DNA of 63,576 bases, the filler included, from Reclinomonas americana ATCC 50394 (lineage: Eukaryota), in assembly GCA_048213135.1 (NCBI GenBank). It is 11 parts of 4 records of this genome, joined end to end, with 100 filler letters (N's around TTAATTAATTAA, not from the genome) between each part and the next. Parts side by side here need not be neighbours in the genome. Positions count along the whole stretch, not along the records: positions 5,448 to 7,888 come from PS015345.1; positions 7,989 to 18,197 come from PS015345.1; 9 more parts are not named here. One strand, 5' to 3'. Below the pieces are notes generated by a model. It saw only the letters and a list, made by a program, of their open reading frames with translations, was not told the DNA's origin and did no database searches. Positions within the stretch are counted from its first letter, which is position 1; the number at the start of each line of letters is the position of its first letter. This document shows positions 792-53,179 of the stretch, piece after piece. A program made the translations under genes and the position numbers.

Positions 792-2626
792 TCACCATGT
801 TGGTGACGAGTGCAAGAACAGCGACTTCTCCTCGTTCTCCAACCACGTCTTGATGCGCTTGCACGACTCCATCGCCTCGGGTCGGTCCACAAACGGCGAA
901 AAGGTGGCAAACATGGTGAAATCGCGCCGCCGCCAAATCACAATCGTTTCGCTCTCCGTCACGCGGCACATGAAGCGGTGCTCCGCGGCCTCCAGACTAA
1001 AGTACAGGTCGGCGTACTGGCGAAGCAGTCTACATACATGCACCGTTGGAGAATGGAGAAGAGAGAAGAGGGAGAGCAAGTTTGTAAACAAGTACCTCTT
1101 GGCCTCCGACGGGTCGCTGAATGGCGGGTCGAAGCGAGGTGCCGTGAACTGCAGCGTGTCCTCGTTCTTGTACACAAAGTGTCGCAGCTCGCGGATGCCC
1201 AGGTCGCCTGCAGAAGGGGGAAGGGAGGAAAGGAGGAGAGGGGGGTGAGTGGAGAGAGAGAGCAGAGAAGAGATGAAAAGCGAGTGAAAGGGATATGAGG
1301 GAACAGAGACCACAGGAAGTGAGTAATGTCGCTGGAAAGGAGAGAGAAGAGGTGGATGGGAGAGAGAGAGGAGATACGAGAAAATAACGAGCGAGAAGAG
1401 AGGAATGGAGATGAGAAAAGAAGTGGAAACAAAGGAGAGGAGAGGTGAATGAGAGGCAAGAGTGGAGAGAGGAGAGAGCGAGAGAGCGAGAGAGAAAGGC
1501 AATAATAGGCGATGAAGAGACAGAGAACTCAAGGACAACCGAACGCTGACACAAATAAGAGAGGGCGGGAGACAAATGGCATCGCCCACTCACTTCCTAC
1601 ACTCTGCTGGCACACTTGCAACTACAACTTATCTAGCTGGTGCACTCCACGAGCTTATCGACGTCCTCTCTGACATAATAATAGAAACCTCACTGATCCA
1701 TACACAACAATAAGCATCTACCAGTGATCGCCAACAAGTCTCGTGTGCTTTCCTTCTACAACTAAAACTGTTTTAAGTGTGTTGTCGATGTTGAGAATAA
1801 AGCCCTATTTCTCACTCGTGCTATTGTGTTGGCATAGTCTTGCCCCTTAAATCGATGCAGTATGTTCACTCGGTGCTCTCAAGCGTATATTTGCTGCTCA
1901 CAAATCGACCTCTCACGACGCACGCTGGCTGATACATCTTTACGACTACAGTTGAGCACGCAAATCCTCTGTTCTCACGCCGTGCATGTACTCGCTCCTC
2001 TCAACCCAACACACTGAACGCCGTCACTCCATCTCCCTTTCCCTCCCCTTCCCTCCCCCCTGCACCACCACGCAACGAGCACTGTAGTCATCCTCATCCT
2101 TCGACTGCACAATCGCCTCAAAGAGTCCCGTGTCGTACAGACCGCTGACAATCTGCTCACGCGCCGCGCTTATGTGCTCGAAATACTCGGGATCGCCCGA
2201 CTTGGAGATCAGCATGAGGCACACTTCGGGGGCGATGAACTCGACAAATGCCCACAAGAAGCCGGTGGAGAAGACGTGCGGTACGCAGATGGGTGTCCAT
2301 GTGACGGCGTGCTGCATCGACTGACTGCTGTTGATGAAATTCATTATCAACAGGAAGTCTGTGAGGGGAAGGGCGGCGGAGGGGGAGTGAGTACATTGGA
2401 CAAGGAGAGAGAGAGAGGGAGAGTGAGCGTAAGAGAAAGAAGAGAAAGAGAAAGAGAGAGTGTATGTATATGAGAGAGAGAGAGAAAGAGAGAGAGAGAA
2501 TCAGACAGTTGCGTGCAACCGCGAGTGAGACAGAGGTCGATTCATGTGCACGTCAGAGACAGAATGAAAACATGGGCGCATGGCGTAGATATGAGGGTGA
2601 GTGAGACAGCGTGCGCGAGTGGGCGT

Positions 2627-2674
<48 letters not shown>

Positions 2675-4804
2675 NNNNNNNNNNNNNNNNNNNNNNNNNN
2701 NNNNNNNNNNNNNNNNNNNNNNNNNNNNNNNNNNNNNNNNNNNNNNNNNNNNNNNNNNNNNNNNNNNNNNNNNNNNNNNNNNNNNNNNNNNNNNNNNNNN
2801 NNNNNNNNNNNNNNNNNNNNNNNNNNNNNNNNNNNNNNNNNNNNNNNNNNNNNNNNNNNNNNNNNNNNNNNNNNNNNNNNNNNNNNNNNNNNNNNNNNNN
2901 NNNNNNNNNNNNNNNNNNNNNNNNNNNNNNNNNNNNNNNNNNNNNNNNNNNNNNNNNNNNNNNNNCCAATTGTTGCTGCGTGGTGGCAGTGAGTGAGACA
3001 GCGTGCGTGTGCATTCGTCAGAGAGAGAGAGAGCAGTGTTCGCGTTTTTTGCAACTGCATGGTTAAGGAATGAGTTAAACTGGTGGCAGTAAGTGAGAGC
3101 TTGCGTGTGTGTGAAGGTGAGAAAGAGCGACAAAGAGAGAGAGAGCGCGCGTATGTGCACTTCGTGAACGTGGGTTACGTGCCTGACAGTATGACTATGT
3201 CTCTCTCAACGCTCTTCCCCATCCGCCGCACCTTGCGAATGCAGTGACACCGACTTGCTGCGCACGAGTTGCACCAGTCGATCCTTGACAATCAGCAAGC
3301 CAAACCTAACATCATCACCACCACCACCACCACCACCACTTGTCAGCACCTACCAACTCACTCACCCATTGCCCCCATCACGCCACGCAACAGCATGTGA
3401 CTACCGCCAGCCTTCCGATGGATCAAGTCGCCAATACTCTGCCGCACCTGCCGGCTCATGCGCTGGCACTTGATTGCGTCGAGGAAGAAGGCGGGTGAGT
3501 GGTTCATGCGGTGCATGAGGTTGAGGAGTTGTGGCTCGGTGCCACCCAGCAACTCGCGCAAATCATAATTGGATCGCTTCTCAAACACCTTCTCCACCGA
3601 CGCCGTGAGGATCGACATGATGCAGGCGTGGAGCACGTCGAGCTGCCGTCGTAGTGAGTCTTCGCACTCGCCCGTGCACGCCACCGTCACCAAGTGCAAC
3701 GGTCCACGGTTCATGAACACAATCAGATGGTCGCCGGCCACAATGGTCCTGCGAGGAGGGAATGTGAGCGGCGAGGAAAGCAGCAAAAGAAGACAGGCGC
3801 GGAGGACGGAACTTGAGTGCGTCGTGCTGTTGCTCGACAAAGCTGCAGAGGGCTTGCAGGACGGCCATGAAGCTCGACATGGCGGATTCGTTGCCATACC
3901 TATTAGGGAGAGAGAGAGAGAGAGAGAGTGAGTGAGTGAGTGAGTGAGGACAGGAACGAGGGGGAGGAACGACGGGAGAGGAAGGGAAGAGAGGAGAGAG
4001 GAGAGAGGAGAGAGGAGAGAGGAGAGGAGNNNNNNNNNNNNNNNNNNNNNNNNNNNNNNNNNNNNNNNNNNNNNNNNNNNNNNNNNNNNNNNNNNNNNNN
4101 NNNNNNNNNNNNNNNNNNNNNNNNNNNNNNNNNNNNNNNNNNNNNNNNNNNNNNNNNNNNNNNNNNNNNNNNNNNNNNNNNNNNNNNNNNNNNNNNNNNN
4201 NNNNNNNNNNNNNNNNNNNNNNNNNNNNNNNNNNNNNNNNNNNNNNNNNNNNNNNNNNNNNNNNNNNNNNNNNNNNNNNNNNNNNNNNNNNNNNNNNNNN
4301 NNNNNNNNNNNNNNNNNNNNNNNNNNNNNNNNNNNNNNNNNNNNNNNNNNNNNNNNNNNNNNNNNNNNNNNNNNNNNNNNNNNNNNNNNNNNNNNNNNNN
4401 NNNNNNNNNNNNNNNNNNNNNNNNNNNNNNNNNNNNNNNNNNNNNNNNNNNNNNNNNNNNNNNNNNNNNNNNNNNNNNNNNNNNNNNNNNNNNNNNNNNN
4501 NNNNNNNNNNNNNNNNNNNNNNNNNNNNNNNNNNNNNNNNNNNNNNNNNNNNNNNNNNNNNNNNNNNNNNNNNNNNNNNNNNNNNNNNNNNNNNNNNNNN
4601 NNNNNNNNNNNNNNNNNNNNNNNNNNNNNNNNNNNNGTCGTCACTGCCATCGCCACCGCGCTCCAAACGAACTTTATGAATGTGAGAGAGGAGCGCGACA
4701 ACAAAGCAAAAGCACGAGTGTGTGTGTGAGCGCAACTGTTGCGTTGCATCTCCTCCCACGCCTCGTCGTCGGCCTCACGACGAACAAAGCGTTCCGTGTC
4801 GTGA
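792..4804 (-). CDS. MON1: Vacuolar fusion protein Mon1/SAND, multi-exon, N-terminal part interrupted by a gap
   Basis: GT-AG exons join in phase: RYGNESAMSSFMAVLQAL, IVFMNRGPLHLVTVA...NYDLRELLGGT, LVRSKSVSLHSQDFLLIMN, WTPICVP...GFLWAFV, LRHFVYK...ATFSPF...WLENEEKSLF. Stop at 792. Confidence 0.9.
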
Positions 4805-5263
4805 CTGCAAAAAGGGAGAGCGGAGATCGAGGGAGGGAGTGAGGGAAAGGCGATGGAAAGGGGAGAGAGAGAGCGTGAAGGGGAAGCATCGTTCGCCAGT
4901 TAAACACAACGCCGTGTCGCTCTCTCACGCACATGTACGCACACTCATCACACACTCACACACTCGCAAACAAGACAACAGCTCAATGCACTCGAATTCC
5001 TCCGAAACATGCTTCTCTTCACACACTCATCACACACACCGAGAGAGAGAGAGAGAGAGAGCAGACAACAACAGAATGCACTCATTCCTCCTCACATGCT
5101 TTCCTTGCCGTTTTCGCACACACACACTCATTCTCTCTCACACACACTCACACGCACACACACACACTCACACGCACACACACTTCCCACTCTCTTCTCA
5201 CACAGAACAACAACTCAATGCACTCATTTCTCCTCCGAAACATGTTTCCCTTGCTGTCTCTCG

Positions 5264-5344
<81 letters not shown>

Positions 5345-5447
5345 CAANNNNNNNNNNNNNNNNNNNNNNNNNNNNNNNNNNNNNNNNNNNNTTAATTAAT
5401 TAANNNNNNNNNNNNNNNNNNNNNNNNNNNNNNNNNNNNNNNNNNNN

Positions 5448-5837
5448 CCCTGAAAAAGAGACGCCAGAAGTGAGTGCAGAGAAGTTAAGCAGGCTCCTAA
5501 AATCTCTGAAACGTGAGTTGACTCCAGGCATTGATCAGATTCCGTACGAGCTCTATCAGACCCTAGCTTCGGAAAAGATAGATGAGGGTGCGAAGTTCTT
5601 GAAAGTCCTGTCACACATCACACAGCTCGTCCTTCTTCACCGTCGTGCCCCGTACTCCATGCGTACCAGGAAAGTCATCCACCTCTGGAAGAAGAAAGGA
5701 GACCCAGACACCCACGCCACTGACCTTGACTACTTCCGACCGATCTCTCTGCAGTGCACTCTCTACAAGATCACGAGTCTGTACATCTCTCGCTACATCC
5801 TGCAGCCTATCGGAGAGGCCCTCAACCTGCACTGTGA
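5448..5837 (+). mobile_element. Non-LTR retrotransposon-type reverse transcriptase fragment (N-terminal RT motifs)
   Basis: LKRELTPGIDQIPYE ... IHLWKKKGD ... YFRPISLQCTLYKI match the PGxDxI, PxKxD and YRPISL..YK motifs of LINE/R2 RTs. Open at both contig ends. Confidence 0.85.
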
Positions 5838-6471
5838 NNNNNNNNNNNNNNNNNNNNNNNNNNNNNNNNNNNNNNNNNNNNNNNNNNNNNNNNNNNNNNN
5901 NNNNNNNNNNNNNNNNNNNNNNNNNNNNNNNNNNNNNNNNNNNNNNNNNNNNNNNNNNNNNNNNNNNNNNNNNNNNNNNNNNNNNNNNNNNNNNNNNNNN
6001 NNNNNNNNNNNNNNNNNNNNNNNNNNNNNNNNNNNNNNNNNNNNNNNNNNNNNNNNNNNNNNNNNNNNNNNNNNNNNNNNNNNNNNNNNNNNNNNNNNNN
6101 NNNNNNNNNNNNNNNNNNNNNNNNNNNNNNNNNNNNNNNNNNNNNNNNNNNNNNNNNNNNNNNNNNNNNNNNNNNNNNNNNNNNNNNNNNNNNNNNNNNN
6201 NNNNNNNNNNNNNNNNNNNNNNNNNNNNNNNNNNNNNNNNNNNNNNNNNNNNNNNNNNNNNNNNNNNNNNNNNNNNNNNNNNNNNNNNNNNNNNNNNNNN
6301 NNNNNNNNNNNNNNNNNNNNNNNNNNNNNNNNNNNNNNNNNNNNNNNNNNNNNNNNNNNNNNNNNNNNNNNNNNNNNNNNNNNNNNNNNNNNNNNNNNNN
6401 NNNNNNNNNNNNNNNNNNNNNNNNNNNNNNNNNNNNNNNNNNNNNNNNNNNNNNNNNNNNNNNNNNNNNNN

Positions 6472-7888
6472 CCTGCAAAAACTCCGACACATTTTCCCAC
6501 TGGATGTCTGCAAGGTACTCTGGCCAGTCTGTCGGTGGTTTCTCAAGGGGTGTGCATGCCATTCTCTTGTAGAACTTTTCTGTTGCACCCACACTTCCTC
6601 TGTAGTAGACTTGGCTCTCGCGTTTCTCTTTCTGTGCCTCGTGAGTGTGGACGATTCTGGCAAAAGTCTTCTGCTTGTTGGCTAGATAGAGTCTCTGTTG
6701 TGCCAACTTTTTCTTCTTTTCCTCTTCCTTCTTGTTGTTCTTCTTTTTCTTGTGGAGGTCTCTGCGTGCAATCTCAATGGCAGTGGCAAAACGGGCAATC
6801 ACGCTGTGGATGTCGACTTCAAACACGGGGCGCGCGCCATTACCAGTCGGCAGAGGGTTTCTGACGTTGGCTGGGAGAATGTCCTTTCTGCGGATGTACT
6901 CGCGGTTGAGTTGCTGGTTGTACTGACCTACCGACACGTAACCTTGCGGGCACTGGTTGTACATCTTGCTGACATTGCGTTTCTGTGAGTGAGGGTGGTG
7001 CTCGAGGACAAAGGCATACAGCTCACTGACGCGGTCGAGTGTGATTCTCTCCTGGGGCTGGCCAGGGCCTTCTCCATGCTTGTTGTTGCGAACTGCGTAG
7101 AACTCTGGGCGCTCCTCGATGTCTGCCTTGTTCCTCTCAGCCAGCTCCATCGAGACAGAGCCGTACAGGTAGTCCATGAAGTTGATCGCGAGCCTGTCAA
7201 ACCTGACAAACTGCGCGTTCCACTCTTCCTCAGGCGTCGCTGGATCTTGCCTCATCGCGGATACCACGTCTACCATTTCCTCCAGACTGGGAAGGTATTT
7301 AGCAGCCGAATCCGCAGACAGTTTTTTCAAGAACTCCGGGCCGACTTTCTTCTCGGCGTAGCTCCATTTCATGGGGATGCGGTGTGTCATGGTCATCTGC
7401 ACGGTGTCCTCCATGTCTTCGAGGTACTCTTGCATGAACTCGAACTCTTGGTGGTCGTCTTGGCCTTCTTGCATTTCGTGGGGGACATGAGCGTGTGCCG
7501 GTTCGTCTTCGAATTCTTCGAGCTCGTCTTCGTCTTCACCTTGGAAATCGTGTTGGCTTCGTGCATCAAACTGGTCATCGTCTTCCATGTGCCATGGTGG
7601 GTGCTCTTGCTGCAACTGATGTGCGTGCATGATTGGTTGCTGTGCGAAGTCTTCAAGCTCCATCTCGAGTGGTGGGAGAACTACATCTGGTGGCAAGCCA
7701 GGCGGCGGTGAATCAGCGAGGCTTGCTCTCTCACCATCACTGTCGTGATCTGACTCTTCTGCGTGGTGGCCTCTGTCAACATTAACAGCGATCAGGTCGT
7801 CATTGTCGGAGTCATCATCTCCACTCCCCGGCGCAATGCCATGATGTTGGTGAGCGAGAGGTGCAAGTACAGCGTGTGGCTGCGCGAG
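6472..7888 (-). mobile_element. Intronless ORF segment: acidic region, then a basic pre-RT region; probable upstream part of the RT protein
   Basis: Open for about 472 codons across the whole contig. KKKKLAQQRLYLANKQKTFARI resembles the Q-x-LY-xx-N block that precedes RT in R2-like elements. Confidence 0.6.
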
Positions 7889-7988
7889 NNNNNNNNNNNN
7901 NNNNNNNNNNNNNNNNNNNNNNNNNNNNNNNNTTAATTAATTAANNNNNNNNNNNNNNNNNNNNNNNNNNNNNNNNNNNNNNNNNNNN

Positions 7989-9487
7989 CTCAGCGGTGGG
8001 GCGTGTGTCCACAGCTTGGCCAACGTCACCCTCACGGACTGCCGCTGCCGCCCTCAGTTGTTGCTGATGATGACGACGACGTGTTGGTGACGCATTTTGC
8101 GCCGCCACCGCAGTGTGAGCCTTGGAGAGAGCCGATGCACCTGAGTTACGATTCAACGCCACGAGTCTCTGTTGGTTGCGGTGCTGTCTGTCACTGGAGT
8201 GGCGACTCTCCTCACTCTCGTCTCCTGTGCTGTCATCGCTCCTCGGATCATCCGACTCACTGCCCTCAGGTCTCTCACGCTTCTTGGACCTCTTGGGCAG
8301 TCTCACACTTGCACTGCGTTTCTCGCTGACACTACCAGTGGCAGGGTGCGAGGACGAGGCGGCTCTGACTGCAATGTTGCCACGATCACTGTTTCTGTCG
8401 ACTCTGTTGGCTCTCGTGGAAGGAGTGCTCTCACGTGCACTGGAGGGGAGTACTGTCTCACGGGAAGAGGGGGTGAGGAGTGTGCGAGTGGTGTGTGTTT
8501 CAACTCTAGTGCCGTTACTGCCGTTTCTCTGTGTGTGATCAATTCCCGCGCTCATTTGCTCTCTCGTAACACTTCCATGAGTGGTCGTGAAAGCACTCTG
8601 TTGAGGGGGACGGCGAGGCGAGGTGGCAGGCGGTTGAGTTGTTGTGGGGGCAATGGCACCTTGTTGCTGTTGGAGCTCGCGCTCGAGTCTCGCGATTCTG
8701 GCATCACGGGGCTCCTCAATGCCACGGAAGAGTGGGCTCTGTTGCCTGTTGCGGGTGGTCACTGGCGGCGGCGGACGGGGAGGTGGAGCAGGAGGTGGAG
8801 GCGGGCGTGACGCAGGGGGGGTTGATGCGGAACGCACAGGTGGTGTTGACGTTGGTGGTGGTGCCATCGTCGGGGTCGCCGGTGAGTCTGGCAAAGGCGT
8901 GACGAGCCATGCAGTGGAGAGTTTACGTCCACCGCCTGACATGTTGTCGACGCCGCTGAGCCAGGTGCTTGGTAGACTGTCGAGAGTTGACAGTGGGTTT
9001 TCTTTGCTCTCAACAAAGCACGAAATTGCGGTGAGATTGGCAAACGGCGTGGCCGCATCTTCACCTTCGTCCTCCGGCGCCTCGCGCGGCTTAGCCATCT
9101 GCATGACCTCGTCGGCAGTCAGCTGCTCTTCGGAGCCTGGCCACAGATATCGCTCCAGTCGCTTCAACGAACCCATCAGGCGCTGCACATACTCGAAATC
9201 GTCAAAGAAGCGCCTGCTGAAGGTTTCCGGTCGCATGAGCCACGAAGAGCTCGAGACAATGTCCTCCGCTCGTCTCGGGAGACAGGTGTCGCGCAGCACC
9301 TGCCTGATGGCCGCTAACATGCCACGGAAGTCGCCAGCGTGAAAGAGTGCGGCCTGTGCAGGTTTGTGAGAGAGCAGCGCTCTGTGCGTGCGCAGTGACC
9401 CAGCTCACTCACCACAGGTGAAAGTGGTGCATCGTCAGTGTGTGCTGCAGACGAGGGCCCAGGATCTGGCTCGGAGCGCTCACCCAT
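7989..9487 (-). CDS. N-terminal part of a long ORF (exon 9487-9413, intron 9412-9354, exon 9353-7989); probably continuous with 7888-6472
   Basis: ATG at 9487, phase-0 GTGAGT...CAG intron, 455 open codons ending on a codon boundary at the linker. The next contig starts in phase 0. Confidence 0.6.
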
Positions 9488-9722
9488 TCTTGGAAACCGC
9501 GTTATGTAAATTCTCGTCCTGCACACATCCCGAACTTCACAAGCGCAGGTTGCACTGGGAATGTCGCTGCCATGTGCAGGAGCACCGTCTCCTCTCTCCA
9601 CAATGTTTGCAGTCTGCAGCGAGGAGAAGGAGACAAAGCAGAACACTTTATTCTCCACACTCCGAACAAACAACCAATACAACAGCGAAAATACACTCTC
9701 TCTCATTCTCTCTCTCTCATTC

Positions 9723-12700
9723 ATGCAACGGCGCCGCGCACACCCCCGCCAACAGCAACCCGACCAACAGCAACACCAGCGACGACGACGAGCACCGCGC
9801 GGAGACGACTCAACTTCATCCCCACAACAACAACAGCAACAACAACAACGTCGACAAGCGCCACAGCTCTTTGGCCGCGACAACCCCTTCGGCGCCGCCT
9901 CCTCCTCCGGTAGCGTCGGCATGGGCGGCACGTCCTCGTCCTCCGCCTCCTCGCACGATCAGGAGAGCGAGAAGGAAGGTGAGGAGGCGCGAAATGCATT
10001 GCAAATCACGAATGATCACTCTCACCTTCTCACTCTGCTCACTCACTTTTCACTCTTCTCACTCTCTCATGCTCTCACTCACTCACTATCACACTCCTTC
10101 CCTCACTCACTGCACACATTCACTCTCTTTCTCCCTCACATTTCTCACTGCAATCACTCACTTCTCACTCTTCACTCTCTCACTCACTCACTCTCACGCT
10201 CAACCACTCACTCACTATCTTCTCTCACTGCCCTCACTCACTTCTCACTCTTTTCACTCACATTCTGTCATTCACTCTCTTTCTCACTCTCTTTCTCTCC
10301 TTCCCTTCTCCTCACTCTCTCTCAGATGCTCCTCGCCCGATGCTCTCTGCCGAGTTCGAGGCACTGGTCTCGGCACTGGCACAGCTGCAGCACGTGGGAG
10401 CGGAAATGCACATGGTGAGTGTGTCTGTGCGGAAATACACTGATTGGTGTCGCCTGCAAGGTTTTCCCCGTTCTCATTGCTCCCCTTGGTGTCCTTCTAC
10501 TCACCCTCCTCCTGCTTTCCTCACTGTCTGTCGTTTCCATTGCTTCCTCCTCTCCTTGTCTTCTTAGTGACATTCGCTGCAATGCACAAACGCTCGTTTC
10601 ACCCCTGTTTGTCGTCTGTTGCCATCCACCTTGTGTTGTTTCCTGATGCCTCTCTCTCTCTCTCACTGTTCCCGTTGTGGCCCTGCCTTCCACTCTTCCA
10701 TGTTCTCCTCCCGGTTTGTCGTCTGTTGCCATCCACCTTGTGTTGTTTTCATTGCCTTCCATTTTCCTGTCTCCATTGCCTCCCCCTTGTTGCCATTCCA
10801 CTCGCCGTGCTTCATTCGCTGCCCACATCCCTATACCGTTTCCCACTGCCTTCCACTCTTCCATGTTCTCCGCGCTGTTTGTCGCCTGTTGCCATCCTCT
10901 GTGTGCTGTGTTCCGCTGCGTCTCCGTTCTCTTTGCAGCTTCCCATTCGCTTCACATCCCCTCTTTCCCCTGTAGCTCTCTCTCTCTCTCTCTCTCGCTT
11001 CTCTCTCTCTCTCTCTCTCGCTTTCTCTCTCTCTCTCTCTCTCACTTTCTCTCTTGTTCCTTCATTGAGGTCCAGTCGCCTGTCCTTCCTCACTCGCTGC
11101 CCGCCCTCCCCTCCTTCTCCTCCCCCTCCCTCCCCTCCCCTCCCTCCCTTCCCCTCCCCTCCCCCTTTACCCCGCAGACCGAATCCGTCATCTCCGACGA
11201 CGCCCTCCGCCTGCTCACCCTCATGATGCGCATTTTCCGCTTCTTTGAGGAGATTGTTGGCGATGTTGCGTGCTGCACATCCCCCCCTGACATTGCATTC
11301 GCTTCTCATATCTTGCCGCCTCCAGGACGTCAACTACTCGCTGGCGGTGCACGCACTCGGGCAAGTCGGCCCCACCGTCTCCGACATTGAGAAACTGAAG
11401 GCCGACTACGACGCGTCTGTGGAATCGATCGATCTGGTGCTTAATGGCGAAGAAGAAGGAGTGGATGGGCATGACGACGTCGACGACGATGCAGTGAGCT
11501 CTCCGAGTCCCGCAATCGAGCTGGAGCAACTGGTCGCCACGCGTGATGTCACCGCCAAGAAACTGGCGGCCTTGATCCACGGTCTAATGATGTCGCTGCC
11601 AGAGTTGGTGCGCGTGCACACCGACCGCGAGCATGAAGTGCGCACGCTGTGGGAGTCTTCGGGGTTGCGTCACCACCCGCCCGTCCGTCTCTGTCTGCGG
11701 TTGCTGACTGCCGCCCTTGCAGACTTCTTACCGTGATTGGTGGCGACCTGACCGCGGCTGCTGAATTGGTGGCCGCCACCAAGGGACGCCAGATCAGTGT
11801 TCCGCCGTCGCCTGGTGCGCTCCTGAACCGCTCTGTATTCATCCACACTTTCCAACCTCACCCTTCTGCTTCATTCACCACAGACGTGGACAGCGATTCG
11901 ATCCCTTCAGAGGAGGAAGGTCTGTGTCCGTCATGGTGACTCTCTCTGCCCACAACTCGGACTCTCACCTCCTCCTCCTCCTCCTTCAAAGACATGGACG
12001 GTCTCGTGCAGCGCATGGGTTCGTGGTTGGAGGTCGCCAATGCACCAAGGCTCAGCCCGCTGCTCGACAGTACGCGTTCCTCGCTTGGTGAAGATATCCG
12101 TGTTCTGTTGGGTTTTTCCGTGCATTTCTCTTGCTGATTTTCTGCCCTGTGCTGCAGATGAGTGTCTTGCCACGCCGCTCCTGGAGGCGCTGCAGAATTG
12201 CGTCAGCGTGGTGGAAAAAGGAGTTTCGTGATTGTCTGACAAAAGGGAAGAGGGTTTGTGTTTGCTCACCCGTGGAGCGCTTGCAGAACAAGCCAGGCGC
12301 CAGCGCCGATGCATTCCGGAAGCGAGTACGAATGGTGGCCGAGTCCATGGATGTGGTTCGTGTGTGCGAGGGACGATGGTGCAAGGGAGTGTGTTCAGTG
12401 TTCTCTCTCTTTCCGCCCCACTTCGTCTCCCCCCTCTGCGTCTCGCTACACTGCGTCTCCCTTCACTGCGTCTCCTCCACTTCATCTCTCCCACTGTGTC
12501 TCCGCCCTCTTTGCCTTCGCACTCGTCTCTGTACTTTGTCTCTCCCCACTTCCGTCTCTCTCTCTCTCTCTCTCTTGTCTCCCCCCACTGCGTCTCCCCC
12601 CACTCCGTCTCCCCCCACTTGCGTCTCCCCCCACTTGCGTCTCCCCCCACTTGCGTCTCCCCCCACTTGCGTCTCCCCCCACTGCGTCTCCCCCCACTGC

Positions 12701-28900: not shown

Positions 28901-31569
28901 NNNNNNNNNNNNNNNNNNNNNNNNNNNNNNNNNNNNNNNNNNNNNNNNNNNNNNNNNNNNNNNNNNNNNNNNNNNNNNNNNNNNNNNNNNNNNNNNNNNN
29001 NNNNNNNTCTCGGTGAGCTTGCCGGCCAAGTGGTGCGGCGCCACCACGTGCGTCTCGTGCTGATGCTGATGCAACGCATAGTCGCCCGCGTCACTCGAGT
29101 CGCCCGCCGCCGGCTGCACTGGCGGCGGAGGTGGTGGTGCGGCAGCCAGCAGCGACGGACCGGCCGCCAGCTGCGTCTGCATCATAGTCACCTTCTTTCG
29201 CAACTCGCTTAGGGCGTCGCGGAGCTCGTCGAGATCGTTGAGAGCGACCATGTTGCTGGCGGTCATGTTGGAGGCCGCGTTGCCACCGTTGCCACCGTTG
29301 CCGCCAGAGGTATCCACGCGGCCAGCCAGAGTTTGCAGCTGGTTGAACAGTTGCTGGATCTGCGACAGACAACAAGGGTGAGTGCCGGGAAAGATACGAG
29401 CANNNNNNNNNNNNNNNNNNNNNNNNNNNNNNNNNNNNNNNNNNNNTTAATTAATTAANNNNNNNNNNNNNNNNNNNNNNNNNNNNNNNNNNNNNNNNNN
29501 NNTTGACGAGGACATTGAGAAGACGCGCGCGGATTTGCGGTCGCTGCGTGGCGAGGTGGCCGCGCTGGACGAGTTGCGCGTGCGCCTGAGCACGGTGGAG
29601 CGTGTGCTGCCGCAAAAGGCCGATCGGTCGGATGTGGATGAGCTGAGCGCGGTGAGTGCGAGACAGGGGAAGGGAAAGGGGGGAAGGGGGGAGGGGGAAG
29701 GGGGAAGGGATAGGAGGGAGGGAGAGAGGATGATAGACGAATGACGAGTTGGTTTCTGCTCTCTTTCTCTCGCTGTTTGCATCGCATTACATTCTGCCTT
29801 CTCATTCTCTCTCCCACTCCGCCGGTCATTCGTTCCATGATTTTTGCCTTCCTGTGTGGTGGAATCAAGCTTCTTGCACCCTCCTCTGTTTCTTGTTGCA
29901 CCTCGCTTTCAGTGAAAACAGGTTCCTTCTTTCTGGCAACATTTTCTCTCTCTTACTCTTTCTCTCCACCTGCGTGAGTCTTTTCTTGAGTGTTGCCTGT
30001 TCTCGCTCGGACTGTCTGTCTTTCACGTCATTCGTTTTCTCGTTGCTCAGGATTCTCTTCTCTTCCATACTTCTTGCTTCTCTCTCCCCTCCTGCATCCA
30101 TCTTAGCATGATGGGTTTTTTGGTTGCTCGAATTCGGCCTCAAACACTTGTGGTATTTCTCGCACGTTTTCTATGCTCGCCCTTTCTCTCTTCTTCTCTG
30201 TCTCTCAGGTGCGTCTGTGGCTGCGTCTGTTCTCATTAATTGTCTCCTGCTCTCTGTTTATCAGTTTCTCTCCCCCTTTGTTTTCGTTCCTCGTCCGTTC
30301 GCTCTCCCTCGCTCTCCTCCTCCCTTTCCCCCTCTTCCTCTTTCTTCTTTCTCCTCACCTTCCATCTTCCCTCCCTCTCCTCCCCTTCCCTCCCATCCCT
30401 TCTCTTCCCTCTCTTCCCTCCCTTCTCACATGTCCTTCCCCTCCCCAGCGCTTGGAGAGCCGCCTGGCCGCCGCCTCGAGCAAGATGCTGGAGAGTCCAC
30501 GCCACTTGCCACGCAGCAGCCTGGAGCAGGACTCGGCCGGTGGAGACCTGGGAGCCGACGCCGGTTCCATTCTCAACGAACTGAGCGTGCTGCGCAAGGC
30601 GCTGAACCAGCATCGAGAGCTGATTGACGGCCTCGGTGAGAGGAAGCTCGACCGACGCGAGTTCCAGAATGCCATTCGCGAGCTCAAGGCGGTGCGTCGC
30701 CCTTTTCTCCTTTTTTCCCCCTCTCTGCCTGCTCACCGCTCCATTCGCGCAGGCCATCGAGTCGCTCGAGTCGACCAAGGCCGACACGCACATTGTGGCG
30801 CGCAAAGCGGAGCGCGACATGCTCGAGTCGGCGTTGGAGCGCATCAAGAAGGAGTTCTCCAAGTCGATGCAAGACAACAACAACACCACCACGACGGCCA
30901 TTCGTGACGCCGCCGATCACCTGGCCACCATGGTCGACGACAAGGCCGACCGCATCGAGGTGCGAAGAATCAAGGAGTTCCTCGTCAAGCACCTGCAAGA
31001 TAACGAGCCAGCCGACGGTGACGGTCTGGCTGGCGCGCGTGGCTTCCGCTGCTTGTCGTGCAACCGACCGATCCCCACCATGCGCATTCGGCCGGGCTCG
31101 TCGGTCCACGAGGTNNNNNNNNNNNNNNNNNNNNNNNNNNNNNNNNNNNNNNNNNNNNTTAATTAATTAANNNNNNNNNNNNNNNNNNNNNNNNNNNNNN
31201 NNNNNNNNNNNNNNGTTTGAAACGCGCCTGCCGCAGCCGGCCATGCGGCAAAAGTTGGTCACTGGGCGTCCGCGATTGCCGACCGAACTAGCGTTGCGTG
31301 ACACACATCAAAAGAAAATGGGAGAATGACTGTGTAAGCTCACCACTGCTCTCTATCCTCATGCATACAGCGCCAACTCGACGGCCCTGCGCACGATTCT
31401 GACGCAGCCTGGGCAGAGTCCCATGCCGCCTTCGGCGCCGGGAGCTGACCAAATGACGAACGGTGCACCGCCGCGTCACCTCACCTCTCCGGGCATGCCT
31501 CCGCCTGCACAATCATCGGCGCGAGGAGCAGACCAGACGGGTAGCAAGTTGCCACCCATCCGCCCGTGA
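25968..31569 (+). CDS. Long coiled-coil protein with a DUF4795 (QRICH2/C16orf96-like) C-terminal region, spread over several contigs
   Basis: Repeated KAD/KLD coiled-coil motifs, DGLAGARGFRCLSCNRP, terminal KLPPIRP*. Phase-consistent exons. Confidence 0.7.
29008..29359 (-). CDS. Inverted exon belonging to the DUF4795 gene
   Basis: IQQLFNQLQTL...HLAGKLTE. If flipped, it joins 29503 with no missing base (GAG A|TT GAC = TEIDEDIEK). Confidence 0.75.
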
Positions 31570-31803
31570 GATGAAATGATTTGCCCGGTAGAATAGTAGT
31601 GCGTCTGATTTGAAAAAAGAGGAATTGTGGCGGCTGCCAAGCGTGTTTTGGCAGCTTTGCGAGTAAGGGGAAAAATGTGGAGTAGAGAGCGGGTCTTAAA
31701 CTGACCGCCAACAGTGTATGCGAAGCGATGATGATGCGCGGTGTGGTATCATTGATAGACACTTACTCGCTCGCTCCCTCTAGTCTCTTCAAATCTCACT
31801 CAA

Positions 31804-33154
31804 TTACGACGACGCGGCAGAGCGAGCCAAGAAACCGGCCATGGACTCCAGGTCGCGGCCGAGCCACGCCACCGAGCTCTCAATCTCCTCCACGGACTGG
31901 TTGATGGCGCGATTGGCGGCTGGGACCGGGTGCGCGGCAAAGAACGAGCGCACATCCTCGGCGTGCTCGGTCTTGGTGAACGACGAGCAGACGGACTTGA
32001 CCAGGTTGGCCAGCATGAAGCCGCCCTCACCATAGCTGTAGAGGGGGAGGGGAAAGGGGGAAGGGGAAGGGTAAGGGGAAGGGGAAGGGCAAAGAAAAGA
32101 GGAGAGGGAGCAGGGTGAGCAACAAGGGAGATGCTTTGGTGACGAAAACAACACAGCGCGCACGCACCGACTGTTGAACACGTCAAAGTGCTGCTTGAAG
32201 AAGTTCCACGTCACATCGCGGTGCGCCGGGTTGCCGCCGACACCGGCGACAGCCGACACGGTGTCTTGCGATCGCACCGCGTCGCTGATGGAGAACTCGA
32301 GAGTGCGCACAGCGAGGTCGTGCTCACGAGCGCTGCCGAGAGTGCGCAGCACGCGGACCTGCCAGCACACGGCGATGACAACGCAGCGGCGGTGGCGAAT
32401 CGGCAGATGAAAAAAGCACGCACCTTCTCCTCTTGCATCTCAGCGCGGTGGTAGTGCTCCATGAGCGCATTGTAGGCCTCGGCACCGCCAAAGCGGAGCG
32501 ACTGCATCACACCATTCAATGATGAGCGACAACAATCGCATCCATGCCTTAAGCACACGCAAAAAAACACACCACCGAGTACACCACGGAACGCAGATCG
32601 GCAAGCAGTGGCGCCTCGCCCTTCAAGAACTTGTTGAAGCGTGCGAGTGCCTAACAGATGTGCAGTGAGTGCCGAGTGCGAACTGACACATGGAGAGAAT
32701 TTACAAAGCGGAACCTCGGCAATGGTCGACTCGTCGCCAGCCATGCCCAGACGGCCAAGCACCAGCGGGCGGAGCATGGTGTCCGAGTGCGACTCACCCG
32801 GTCGCGGGTCCCAGCCCAGCTGCACCAACAGCGGTCAGCAACAGGGAGAGGTGGAAAAGCATCGCCTTGACATTTGCTCACCTTGGCACCAATGCGACCA
32901 AACAGCTTGCGCTGGAAGGCCTTCAGGCTGTCGGCCGCCGGTGTGTCGAACAGCAGGCGGGAGATCTCGCCCAAGTTGGTGGCCAGATCCACCCACACTG
33001 CGACAACAAAAAGTCAGGAAGAGAAGGAAGTTGCGCAGGAGTGTGGATGCACGCGCATACCGGTGTAGTCCTCCTCGCCCTCGTAGGCCTCGAAGATCGA
33101 GAGCGCGGTGGTCGTGCTCAGCAGGCCAGCGCGGGCCAGTGAGAGGGCGTCGTT
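31804..33154 (-). CDS. NPEPPS: M1 (puromycin-sensitive-like) aminopeptidase, C-terminal ERAP1-like exons
   Basis: NDALSLARAG, EEDYTVW, LGWDPRPGESHSDTMLRPLVL, QEEKVRVLRTLG, VRSQD, WNFFKQHFD, RAINQSVEEI. Confidence 0.85.
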
Positions 33155-33459
33155 CTGCGGGAGGGAGAAGGGAGAGTGAGAACAGGAAGAGGTGGAGGGG
33201 AAGGGGAAGGGGAAGGGGAAGGGGAAGGGGAAGGGGAAGGGGAAGGGGAAGGGAAGGGAAGGGAAGGGAAGGGAAGGGAAAGGGAAGGGAAGGGAAGGGA
33301 AGGGAAGGGAAGAGGGAGGGAAGGAGNNNNNNNNNNNNNNNNNNNNNNNNNNNNNNNNNNNNNNNNNNNNNNNNNNNNNNNNNNNNNNNNNNNNNNNNNN
33401 NNNNNNNNNNNNNNNNNNNNNNNNNNNNNNNNNNNNNNNNNNNNNNNNNNNNATCCTTC

Positions 33460-33505
<46 letters not shown>

Positions 33506-33835
33506 GCCATTCTCATCATTCTGCAGTCGTCTTCCTCGCTCGGAGCTGCGTACTTTTTCTCCCTCCTTCCTCCGCTTCTGTTTCACTTGCTCTCTCTCTC
33601 TCTCTCTCTCTCTGTTCATCTCTCAATCTCGTTCTTATTGCTCCTCGCTTATTTCTCCATCACCTCCTTTGATCTCTCGTTCTCGCACACACACACACAC
33701 ACAGTTTCTCTCGCAGCCTCTTTCTTTCTTTCTTTCTTTCTTTTCGTCAACCCTTTTCTTCGCTTCTCTAGCTATTGACGGCAAGCTCTCAAGTCACCTC
33801 TTTCTTTCTCGCTTGGCTGTCTTCCTCTCTCTTGT

Positions 33836-33867
<32 letters not shown>

Positions 33868-34003
33868 ACTTTCTTTCTTTCTTTTTACTTCTTCCTCTCC
33901 CTCTTTTCCCATCTCTCCCTTCCCTCCCTCCCTTCCCCCTTCCCCTAACACCCCCTTCCCTCCCTTCCCTCTCCCCTACTTCCCTCACTCTCCCTCCGCT
34001 CAG

Positions 34004-34922
34004 CTGGGACGAGCCGGCAAAGAAGGCCGTGTTCAAGGTCGCCCTGACCGTGCCGAAGCACCTGGAGGCCGTCAGCAACATGCCGATTGTGACGAGTGTC
34101 GAGAGCGGCGACTTGAAGGTGCATACGAGAAGACTCTCTCTTTCTCTCATCTGACACCATTCACTGACGTCGTCGCCCGTCTGCAGACCGTGACATACGC
34201 CGACAGCCCGGTGATGAGCACATACCTGCTGGCGTTTGTGATTGGCGAGCTGGAGTACATTGAGGACGTGACCAGCGAGTTGCGCCAGTGTGAAGACATG
34301 GGTTTCGTTCTTTTCGCATTTTTTGCTGACTTCACGCAGGGGCACCATTGTGCGCGTGTACACCACTCCGGGCAAGAAGGAGCAGGGCCGCTTCGCGCTC
34401 GACGTGGCCAAGCGCACGCTGCCGTACTACACCGAGTGGTTCAGCATTCCGTACCCGCTGCCAAAGGTCGACCTGCTGGCGGTTCCGGATTTCGCCGCTG
34501 GCGGTGCGTTGTCAGGGAATGGAAGAATCGAATCCACTCTTGACTCTAACTTTTTATGTCGTGCGGCAGCCATGGAGAACTGGGGCTGCATCACGTACCG
34601 CGAGACCGCACTGCTTGTGGACCCTGTGAACTCGTCGACGCCGTCCAAGCAGTGGGTGGCGCTGGTGGTGACCCACGAGCTGGCTCACCAGTGTTGCGTC
34701 TGATTGCGGGTGTGCATGTGCTTGTTTTCGGGCGTCTCATCGTGGCGCCTTTTTGCAGGGTTCGGCAACCTGGTCACCATGGAGTGGTGGGATGCCTTGT
34801 GGCTGAACGAGGGCTTTGGTTCGTGTCTGTGTATAACTGTCGCGTGTCGCGCGATGCCTCAAATGTTGCTTCACAGCCACCTGGGTCGAGTACCTGGCCA
34901 CTGACTTCCTGTTCCCCGAATG
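34004..34922 (+). CDS. NPEPPS: M1 aminopeptidase catalytic exons, inverted relative to the rest of the gene
   Basis: [69 protein letters not shown] (GAMEN and HExxH..E motifs). Confidence 0.95.
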
Positions 34923-34927
34923 GTGCG

Positions 34928-34974
<47 letters not shown>

Positions 34975-35100
34975 TGTGTGTGTGTGTGTGTGTNNNNNNN
35001 NNNNNNNNNNNNNNNNNNNNNNNNNNNNNNNNNNNNNTTAATTAATTAANNNNNNNNNNNNNNNNNNNNNNNNNNNNNNNNNNNNNNNNNNNNAGACAGA

Positions 35101-35143
<43 letters not shown>

Positions 35144-35340
35144 AAGGATGCAACTGCAAAGATATCGAGGAAGTGGGAGAGTGAATGAAAGAGGCACAGA
35201 CGAACCAGCATGCAGTATGTTCTCCCTCGTCTTTTCTGCATCTCTTCTCCTATGCTCTCTCCATCCCTTCTCCTCCTCTGCCCTCCCCGTTTCCCACTCG
35301 TCATGACACGACATCGGGGCTCATGCCACGGACAACTCAC

Positions 35341-36044
35341 CAAGGCAACGCACGACGCGCATCCGTGCTCTCAAACTGCGTCGTGGCCATGACGCGCTCC
35401 ACTCCATGCGCATCCTTGTAGATGCTGCGATAGAACCTACATCCCACCAAACAACACTTGAGAAAGAGAAAAAAAGATCCAGCACAAAACCGAACACACT
35501 TCGCCACACTCACTCACCCTCGGAGCTTGTCATTGAGAATGCCCGTGTACACGACGCTAATGCGCAGCGACGACGCCTGTCCTGCAGCAGTCGGCACCAA
35601 ATCGCCGTCGAGCTCCACCGTCGTCACATCATCGTCCTCCGTGTGACGAAAATTCACCACATTCGGCGCCTGCCCGTGCTCGCCCGACGTGTACGCCACC
35701 GTCAGTCGGCTGATCTGCGTTCCACGCGCCTCAGCTTCAACTCGGCGGCGACAGGCAAAGAAGGGAAAATTACCTCAATTTCAGTGGTGTGGAATTGGAA
35801 TGTCCGAGTGGCGCGCTCCACGCGGGCATCAATGTGCACCTCGCCCGCAAAGGTGAATGCCACCAAGTCCGGAGTCAAGTGCAGGTCATAGTACACCGGA
35901 GTCACCGCTGCACACATGAGAGAGAGAGAGGAAAAATGCTCAACAAAGATGAGTGTGACATTTCACACACGCGCAAACAAACACACGCGCGCATTCGCAC
36001 TCACAGTCGTCAAGCAGCTCACGTCGTCGCTCTTCTCCGCTCAT
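35341..36044 (-). CDS. NPEPPS: M1 aminopeptidase N-terminal exons
   Basis: RELLDDSVTPVYYDLHLTPDL, YTGILNDKLRGFYRSIY, TTQFESTDARRALP. The phase-2 donor at 35340 matches the acceptor at 34003 (TG|C). Confidence 0.9.

Positions 36045-51274: not shown

Positions 51275-53179
<1,905 letters not shown>

Follow-up and report, generated by a model that had tools for sequence, protein, structure and literature searches.

A stretch of DNA of 63,576 nt from Reclinomonas americana ATCC 50394 (the window) carries a long reading frame that is likely to be a divergent RLE-type LINE and, judging from its sequence, is likely spliced at its 5' end (Table 1). The explanation that we prefer, though tentatively, is a single copy of a divergent single-ORF non-LTR retrotransposon of the R2 group (RLE-type), with the contig bearing the start of its reverse transcriptase (RT) set backwards and with a spliced 5' leader.

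Table 1. Coordinates of the reconstructed reading frame, its leader, its neighbours and the control contig (positions along the window)
Feature	Position	Strand	Remarks
Host MON1 gene	792..4804	(-)	Downstream, same orientation as ORF; Fuz_longin_1, 2 and 3
Spacer gap	5348..5447	(.)	With the 634-N gap 5838-6471, stands for the unsequenced 3' part
RT motifs 0 to 2, 129 codons	5448..5837	(+) as assembled	Inferred place: (-), directly after 6472
ORF part 2, 472 stop-free codons (7888-6473) and 1 base	6472..7888	(-)	Begins on codon boundary
Basic domain -1 (NTE-1)-like motif	6650..6703	(-)	Aligns to QxLYxxNxxK of Utopia/NeSL-type profile
Spacer, 100 nt, gap size unknown	7889..7988	(.)	Zero bases missing keeps ORF reading through
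ORF part 1, 455 stop-free codons	7989..9353	(-)	Ends on codon boundary
Candidate GT-AG intron, 59 nt	9354..9412	(-)	Phase 0, GTGAGT...CAG
Candidate first coding exon, 25 codons from ATG 9487	9413..9487	(-)	A at -3, G at +4
Candidate 5'-UTR intron, 58 nt	9614..9671	(-)	Upstream of ATG 9487; absent from initial annotation
Host kinase-HECT gene	9723..17690, end approximate	(+)	Divergent from ORF; start 9723 or 9921; HECT match
Control outside the element: flipped contig in a minus-strand puromycin-sensitive-type aminopeptidase gene	33453..34993	(+)

Reconstruction of the reading frame

The reconstruction comprises 1,082 residues across two assembly breaks, and the 3,172 nt of ORF sequenced contain no stop or frameshift. 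The initial annotation had fitted 9353-7989 to 7888-6472 on codon boundaries, and the sequence agrees: the two stop-free parts join in frame when zero bases are missing, whereas with one or two bases added the shorter side stays open for no more than 45 codons. The frame likewise continues with zero bases missing across three further spacers that interrupt coding DNA of the window (frames judged by eye). At the second break, 6472 is a single surplus base, and another single base stands ahead of the RT frame at 5448, so a single missing base joins both ends if 5448-5837 is flipped, as had been proposed. The end of the ORF, catalytic site included, falls in the gap; about 2 kb, or some 680 codons, are expected there (motifs RT3-RT7 with YADD, CCHC, RLE). 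These parts, whose recovery the initial annotation had called for, did not turn up: the six frames of the window hold no further RT, CCHC or RLE piece. Contig 4637-5347, tried on both strands as a continuation of the RT, was rejected (best gain 0.9 bits).

The flip of the RT-start contig is probably an assembly fault. At 5448-5837 itself we infer this from the aminopeptidase contig, which is flipped likewise in the same window: it is inverted in place, and about 225 codons are missing behind 226 N. This assembly is therefore unreliable as to how contigs are oriented and how long gaps are. Were the assembly correct as printed, the locus would hold a real internal inversion or two opposed fragments, and the element would be dead, with no RT protein of 1,000 residues. 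The sized 634-N gap does imply read-pair links in the printed orientation, and only 734 N are present where about 2 kb are needed. Nevertheless, the ends at 6472 and 5448 are complementary to within one base, a housekeeping gene (the aminopeptidase control) is flipped in the same way with its gap likewise underestimated, and the sequenced ORF is free of stops and frameshifts, which makes this reading highly improbable. Twin-priming inversion was rejected by geometry, a matter of reasoning only.

Identity of the reverse transcriptase

As judged from its homologues, the fragment at 5448-5837 codes for RT motifs 0 to 2 of a non-LTR retrotransposon, with LINE-type RT0, RT1 and RT2 all present. The identification relies on homologues because Pfam and NCBIfam searches did not recognise the fragment directly. 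When 1.84 billion proteins were searched, seven of the ten library matches contained RVT_1, and an RVT_1 cluster appeared at rank 23 of the Atlas search. The best single match by E-value was L1-like (P0004). Two matches (P0001 and P0003) were dropped as repetitive proteins without RT, their scores being summed over 19-20 stretches. The pre-RT region gave no usable match in the Atlas search, and word-based protein searches with both regions found no relative, which is weak evidence as they cover longer proteins only. A viral scan gave no match. The metagenome scan returned two loci (L001 and L002), both matching at 47% over residues 1-32, and L002 proved to be a phage-like gene whose peptide matches by chance. 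PDB sequence matches to APCDD1 and polyubiquitin were likewise judged to be chance.

Against an RLE-type profile the fragment scored 44.6 bits (E 3.4e-13); this profile was built from 94 sequences of a family picked on account of match P0005, with no APE-type profile of equal depth beside it. Joined through an X to the minus-strand ORF tail, it scored 64.4 bits, a gain of 20, and the joined sequence aligned collinearly to the profile across the 6472/5448 break. This score was reached by none of 300 shuffled tails (mean 44.9, max 62.8) and by none of 195 other pieces of the window (max 56.4). Pairwise alignments ran on into the pre-RT tail for three RLE-type proteins, P0005, P0011 (Acanthamoeba) and P0014 (Filamoeba), and for none of the seven other RT-type matches among those listed. 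Among 120 RLE-type proteins, the tail added more than 5 bits for only two (mean gain -2.1). In BLASTP the pre-RT region reached E 0.051 against P0005 and E 1.0 against P0011.

The RLE label rests on sequence ahead of the RT, because the RLE, CCHC and YADD parts fall in the gap. The RT phylogeny suggested in the initial annotation placed the query outside the Utopia/NeSL set, on a long branch next to APE/RTE-type rows and within no starred clade (R2, R4, CRE and HERO were not sampled); its cutting pattern skipped eight of the 35 chosen reference proteins and probably cut P0096 wrongly.

The region ahead of the reverse transcriptase

The ORF has 978 residues ahead of RT0, whereas 29 relatives have a median of 412 and at most 745. 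Part 1 consists of a head of about 130 residues, probably helical, and a disordered chain rich in Pro, Ser, Thr and Arg; it has no Pfam or NCBIfam match. A single-sequence structure model of the head was helical at low confidence (pLDDT 43), and with this model Foldseek gave no match at E<=0.001, an uninformative result. Part 2 begins with an acidic, His-rich disordered stretch, after which the pre-RT region follows. The profile region holding the domain -1-like motif also aligns to the solved R2 proteins 9nl2 and 9nl3; scored alone, motif and pre-RT region are weak (7.3 bits, i-E 0.072).

The claim that no APE or zinc finger precedes the RT within about 950 residues withstood profile and pattern searches. 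No APE was matched in the 953 residues ahead of the RT fragment (Pfam/NCBIfam and a two-sequence APE profile), and the 1,082 residues contain six Cys and no C2H2 pattern, with no match to a 78-finger profile or to a seven-sequence Myb profile. A degenerate Myb suspected by eye near residue 655 had no profile support. A CxxC-x12-H-xx-C string at 9540-9647 (-), considered as a zinc-finger exon, was rejected, being one of seven such strings in six frames (2.4 bits). Of the RLE-clade inference made initially, the single long ORF, the RLE-bearing group and the long disordered N-terminus are supported, given the lack of an APE, the domain -1-like motif, the join controls and the flipped aminopeptidase contig; splicing, host fusion and domestication are candidates only.

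As for host fusion, a 5'-truncated element might have inserted in frame into a host gene (perhaps the 5' end of MON1), so that the leader, the head and the low-complexity chain would be host sequence and only the last 350-450 sequenced residues and the gap would belong to the element. RLE-type similarity stops 150-260 residues ahead of RT0, the low-complexity chain is similar to host proteins in the window, and MON1 follows in the same orientation with a strong acceptor at 4805 that has no assigned upstream exon. However, Pro-rich linkers ahead of the pre-RT region also occur in RLE-type relatives, an in-frame junction is a one-in-three chance, and an exon of 1,365 nt would lie far above the host mean. 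Moreover, the phases disagree: that of exon 9487-9413 is 0 at its end, and the MON1 exon at 4804 requires 2 (the MON1 exons at 4804-4637 are inferred from splice signals only). We regard this origin as very unlikely.

Candidate introns in the 5' leader

Judged by splice signals, transcripts of the ORF likely lose one or two host-style introns at the 5' end. The signals that the initial annotation had reported, a 25-codon exon from ATG 9487 and a 59-nt GTGAGT...CAG stretch at 9412-9354, are there in the sequence, and splicing is predicted from them. With matrices based on 25 hand-picked host introns only, this candidate scored 13.0, as against a host leave-one-out median of 12.2. The second candidate, 9671-9614, scored 21.0-21.4 and thus exceeded all 25 host introns in the leave-one-out test (max 19.2). 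In an antisense control of 14,910 nt opposite host genes, no pair reached 21 and two pairs reached the level of score 13. Both candidates lie in sense orientation within 320 nt, and a comparable intron candidate occurs in the leader of another divergent host pair in the window.

The locus would be ordinary if it were a divergent RLE-type LINE without any real intron, starting at the first internal ATG of part 1 (9320), or reading through without a break from ATG 9487 if the sequencing dropped one base, the splice signals being due to chance. The candidate intron measures 59 nt, one short of 60; no stop interrupts the ORF frame from 9404 onwards, nor the exon-1 frame across the candidate intron and upstream as far as 9958, and the overlap of the two frames contains two 3-base runs. 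A one-base loss is already required at 6472/5448. Pseudo-introns scoring at least 13 occur at about 0.3-0.6 per kb of ORF, two inside the ORF itself and others on opposite strands nearby. On the other hand, only 18 and 19 of 1,000 shuffles gave an equally good join of ATG, exon and intron, the stronger candidate lies upstream, and frameshifts are absent from the ORF and from four spliced host coding sets. We consider such an intron-free LINE rather unlikely.

Genomic neighbourhood and origin of the ORF

The distance of 235 nt between ATG 9487 and the kinase-HECT ATG at 9723, given initially, agrees with our annotation, contingent on the kinase-HECT start: the kinase exons splice into an open frame, and a second in-frame ATG in good context lies at 9921, 433 nt from ATG 9487. 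A search of 4637-10400 at E<=10 gave no U2 snRNA match, nor did one of the whole window at the gathering score, and no rRNA or other RNA target family was matched in the window. No target-site duplication was seen at the locus, whose 3' junction lies in the gap, and no terminal repeats were seen.

The body of the ORF is likely of retroelement origin, as supported by its missing introns and its GC3. Its 3,172 nt need no intron, while about 23 would be expected from host density, which counts against an old domesticated gene. In the folded parts, GC3 is 0.64-0.68, compared with 0.72-0.89 in four host coding sets. Under domestication, an RLE-type LINE would have given rise to a host gene present as a single copy, with a host promoter and leader introns; this gene would have lost its fingers for target recognition, perhaps its endonuclease too, and would now work for the cell. 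The head-to-head arrangement with a host gene, at a spacing like that of another host pair in the window, would suit it, as would the host-type leader intron candidates, the ORF open throughout without zinc finger or Myb, the lack of a flanking duplication, and the long branch without a close relative among 1.84 billion proteins. But host exons are about 135 nt long, codon usage is slightly off the host's, domain -1 and RT0, which bind RNA and are used in transposition, have been kept, and no orthologue was found in protein searches; we hold domestication to be distinctly unlikely.

Comparison with known retroelements

RLE-type LINEs have a single ORF without an APE before the RT, a basic domain -1 that binds RNA ahead of RT0, and a C-terminal CCHC knuckle and RLE. 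In L1, RTE and CR1 an APE domain opens the RT ORF; the ORF described here lacks it. It also lacks the N-terminal zinc finger(s) and/or Myb that an excerpt of PMC5678591 gives as a feature of RLE-type LINEs. The Utopia/NeSL-type elements of amoebozoans (Acanthamoeba castellanii RT XP_004339617, i.e. P0011; Filamoeba P0014; and P0005) resemble it in their single ORF without APE, PGID in RT0, the domain -1 motif with short alignable stretches around it, and a Pro-rich linker ahead of the pre-RT region. In contrast to them, our ORF has no N-terminal zinc fingers or Myb, a longer part before RT0 and candidate leader introns; identity to the set is at most 28% over 192 columns, and in the tree it falls outside. 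Utopia targets U2 snRNA genes, according to part of PMC4640811, whereas no U2 snRNA sequence adjoins our ORF. The solved R2 proteins (8gh6, 9dou, 9nl2, 9nl3) share its region order of NTE-1, NTE0 and RT, and R2Bm nicking needs the zinc finger/Myb (both from portions of PMC10499050); our ORF differs in lacking the ZnF-Myb module and any rRNA family match in the window, and any C-terminal ZnF and RLE would fall in the gap. A new deep lineage of RLE-type LINEs, or a gene domesticated from one, in which ZnF-Myb was swapped for an unrecognised helical head on a disordered tether of 500 residues and the frame is assembled by the spliceosome (an intron-keeping LINE or a host-controlled LINE-derived RT), is in our view an unlikely possibility.

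Penelope-like elements are marked by a PLE-type RT, GIY-YIG and pseudo-LTRs. Two of them, Penelope and Chlamys-3_cRei, have 5'-UTR introns, as a section of PMC8557442 reports, and thus likewise a short leader intron near the promoter, ahead of the retroelement ORF, as is the candidate here. However, the RT here is LINE-like in all recognised matches (judged without a PLE sequence), and no terminal repeats accompany it. The rvt genes are domesticated RT genes of about 1,000 residues or more, whose RTs have a large insertion loop 2a between RT2 and RT3. They sit on a long branch in the excerpted text of PMC5718144 and so resemble our gene-like RT of at least about 1,000 residues; the matches here, in contrast, are LINE-type RTs, and the loop 2a region falls in the gap.

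A model of the element and its implications

In the model that we prefer, an element open in every sequenced codon, its RT-start contig likely set backwards by the assembler, has the host genes MON1 and kinase-HECT as its neighbours on either side. It would likely be transcribed from a promoter region common to it and kinase-HECT, and one or two short host-type introns would be spliced from its 5' leader. Through domain -1 and RT0, the predicted protein (about 1,760 residues) would bind the RNA that encodes it, and copying would proceed by target-primed reverse transcription, with a putative C-terminal RLE nicking the target. An intron that has been spliced out of the RNA is lost on reverse transcription; the leader introns are therefore most likely part of the host DNA that lies upstream of where the element itself begins, and this single copy would have captured a promoter and an exon.

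If the introns are due to chance, the locus would be no more than a further divergent LINE of a protist whose assembly is broken. As LINEs copy spliced RNA, real introns in a LINE reading frame would be telling and would indicate capture of a host promoter and exon, a Penelope-like life cycle, or domestication. R2-type proteins are in development for gene insertion, and their targeting depends on zinc finger and Myb domains; an intact R2-type relative without them, if confirmed, would point to another way of target choice.

Identity of the reverse transcriptase piece

Pfam and NCBIfam recognized none of the three pieces of the open reading frame. When the 129-residue reverse transcriptase (RT) piece was run with HMMER against all of 1.84 billion proteins, 10 matches reached E<=0.001. 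Seven contained RVT_1, in one case scoring under the curated cut-off; an eighth, a short fragment, showed these motifs on inspection by eye, and the remaining two, repetitive proteins, were dropped. Identities to the matches were 28-42%, indicating that a close relative is absent from the proteins scanned. The metagenome contig L002 (1-4468) was matched by no more than a chance peptide; its structural genes are large and phage-like, and one of them looks like a lysozyme by eye.

One match, P0005, contains zinc finger, Myb and RT domains. We collected its 120 best relatives, among them an RT from Acanthamoeba and a transcript from Filamoeba. Because PMC4640811 describes an Acanthamoeba NeSL-1/Utopia family with the same domain order, the set is read here as Utopia/NeSL-type. 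On an RLE-type profile built from 94 of the 120 proteins and run against 1,462 window segments, the RT piece scored 44.6 bits (E 3.4e-13 among these segments), spanning RT0 to RT2; no second RT piece was found among the segments.

Reconstruction of the ORF

Features of the element and its surroundings in the window
Feature	Position	Strand	Remarks
ORF part 1	9353-7989	-	455 open codons
ORF part 2	7888-6473	-	472 open codons and one base
RT piece	5449-5835	+ as assembled	129 open codons
Basic motif	6703-6650	-	putative domain -1
59-nt candidate intron	9412-9354	-
58-nt candidate intron	9671-9614	-
Kinase-HECT gene	9723-17690	+	apparently one gene in which a divergent protein kinase domain is fused with a HECT ubiquitin-ligase domain at the C-terminus
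Alternative kinase-HECT start	9921-9978	+	good context; predicted N-terminus begins with MGGTSSS
Contig next to the missing 3' end of the element	4637-5347		acceptor at 4805 (-); 29-nt repeat in three copies, spaced by 90 and 142 nt; long CA microsatellite
Repeat frame	~20070-21390	+	long; many tandem Ser/Pro/Ala-rich repeats (by eye)
DUF4795 coiled-coil protein	30624-31570	+	in frame across two spacer gaps
Aminopeptidase gene	31804-36043		first and last exons on -
Aminopeptidase middle contig	33453-34993		catalytic exons on +
Scrambled low-complexity sequence	52400-52680		ACGT- and GAC-type runs flanking a spacer

The initial annotation had the two minus-strand parts meeting at a codon boundary, and indeed both frames are open and join with zero bases missing. 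It had also proposed that contig 5448-5837, once flipped, fits the end of this ORF. Alone, the ORF end scored 7.3 bits on the 94-sequence profile, its aligned positions immediately preceding those of the RT piece; joined to that piece with an X, it reached 64.4 bits in a collinear alignment, a score attained by none of 300 shuffled tails (best 62.8) and none of 195 other window pieces. From this we infer that the contig is flipped in the assembly and belongs after the ORF end, for which the inverted aminopeptidase contig offers a precedent within the window. The original observation holds, and support for the reconstruction is good. After the RPI motif, 29 relatives with a complete C-terminus have 597-774 residues vs 34 in the element, which implies that ~680 codons are unsequenced.

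The window, from an intron-rich eukaryote, is a scaffold with many gaps: sized N-gaps and ten 100-nt spacers of unspecified size lie between its 25 contigs. Its sequence and distant homologues form the evidence base of the analysis. Three other spacers inside coding DNA (29402/29503, 31114/31215 and 61231/61332) are passed in frame with zero bases missing, as judged by eye. Spacer 27265/27366 apparently allows no zero-base read-through, so spacers are not always empty. Judging from its sequence, the aminopeptidase gene is of the puromycin-sensitive type, with its middle contig inverted in place. Compared with puromycin-sensitive aminopeptidase, ~225 codons are absent behind only 226 N, although the match that anchors the C-terminus in this comparison is weak (E 0.72). 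Orientation and gap size are hence both fallible beside the spacers and, on this case, unreliable in the assembly. The scrambled runs at one spacer have what we take to be the appearance of pyrosequencing error.

The region before RT and clade placement

The reconstruction comprises 1,082 residues, 978 of which precede PGID of RT0; the 29 relatives have a median of 412 residues there and at most 745. A head of ~130 residues comes first; the next ~500 residues are mostly disordered and lead to the pre-RT region, in keeping with the long disordered N-terminus described initially. APE, zinc finger and Myb domains were all absent from the reconstruction, as had been stated for the first two. The head is probably helical, according to a model with pLDDT 43 that gave no fold match. 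The basic motif matches domain -1, the part of R2 proteins that binds the element's RNA (PMC5678591 and PMC10499050). In pairwise comparisons, the alignments of P0005, P0011 (Acanthamoeba castellanii) and P0014 (Filamoeba) ran on into the pre-RT tail, but those of the other seven RT-type matches listed did not. The tail added >5 bits in only 2 of 120 RLE-type proteins, and the pre-RT region alone gave no significant BLASTP match.

The claim of an RLE-clade non-LTR element stands in part. By architecture (no APE, a domain -1 match) the element likely belongs to the RLE group. A tree of 28 rows and 226 columns gives it a long branch that lies next to APE/RTE-type rows rather than within the sampled Utopia/NeSL set, with no starred support; no named clade is established. 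Near the element, neither U2 snRNA nor another RNA gene was found, and no flanking duplication was seen around it.

Candidate leader introns

From the window, 25 host introns were curated, all GT-AG with a median length of 66 nt; three spliced and translated host exon sets keep frame. Six of the 25 start with GTTGCG, five of them after an exon not ending in G; other donors include GTTTGC, GTTCGT, GTTTCG and GTTCCG.

The 59-nt GT-AG intron proposed initially scores 13.0, close to the host median of 12.2. Dinucleotide-shuffled versions of the upstream region gave an equally good ATG-exon-intron join in only 18 and 19 cases per 1,000, a test post hoc to the choice of site. However, equally good pseudo-introns occur twice within the ORF and elsewhere on opposite strands. 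Moreover, 59 nt is one base short of 20 codons and both frames are open, as would be expected if a continuous ORF without this intron had lost one base; alternatively, the ORF might begin at the internal ATG 9320. The upstream 58-nt candidate scores 21, above every host intron in leave-one-out, while 14,910 nt antisense to host genes contained no pair at >=21 and two at >=13. It is free of overlap with kinase-HECT if that gene starts at ATG 9921 rather than 9723. Another divergent host gene pair in the window has a similar leader-intron candidate. In our judgement, it is reasonably probable that at least one of the two candidates is real.

The N-terminus predicted from ATG 9921 resembles a putative myristoylation signal. 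On the other side of the element, the contig adjoining its missing 3' end has a strong minus-strand acceptor that suggests MON1 5' exons; plus-strand signals also occur, so the assembled orientation is provisional.

Proposed origin and precedents

The ORF body requires no intron in 3,172 nt, vs ~23 expected, a mark of retroposed sequence; its codon usage is near the host's, yet not identical. In the simplest model, a LINE copy would sit between MON1 and kinase-HECT, within their divergent promoter region, and be read through a spliced, probably host-derived leader. Its protein would bind its own RNA via domain -1 and RT0, and the element, equipped with an endonuclease, would be mobile, new copies being inserted by target-primed reverse transcription. 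RNA binding and this mode of insertion are established for R2 (PMC10499050). The head may replace the missing targeting module.

No title or abstract opening among the openly accessible papers surveyed described an intron-bearing or domesticated RLE-type LINE. According to PMC8557442, it is highly unusual for retroelements to retain introns, and the paper reports Penelope-like elements with 5'-UTR introns. The legend of a figure in PMC9977147 refers to introns for a panel of active elements; going by its domain key, Dualen is among them, and an intron precedent among LINEs may therefore exist. Less probable, and supported by sequence statistics at this one incomplete locus only, are two more surprising alternatives: a lineage of LINEs that keeps its introns, or an RT that has been domesticated. 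Most likely, the element is a divergent LINE of the RLE type whose N-terminus is unusually long and lacks zinc fingers, and its leader is probably spliced.
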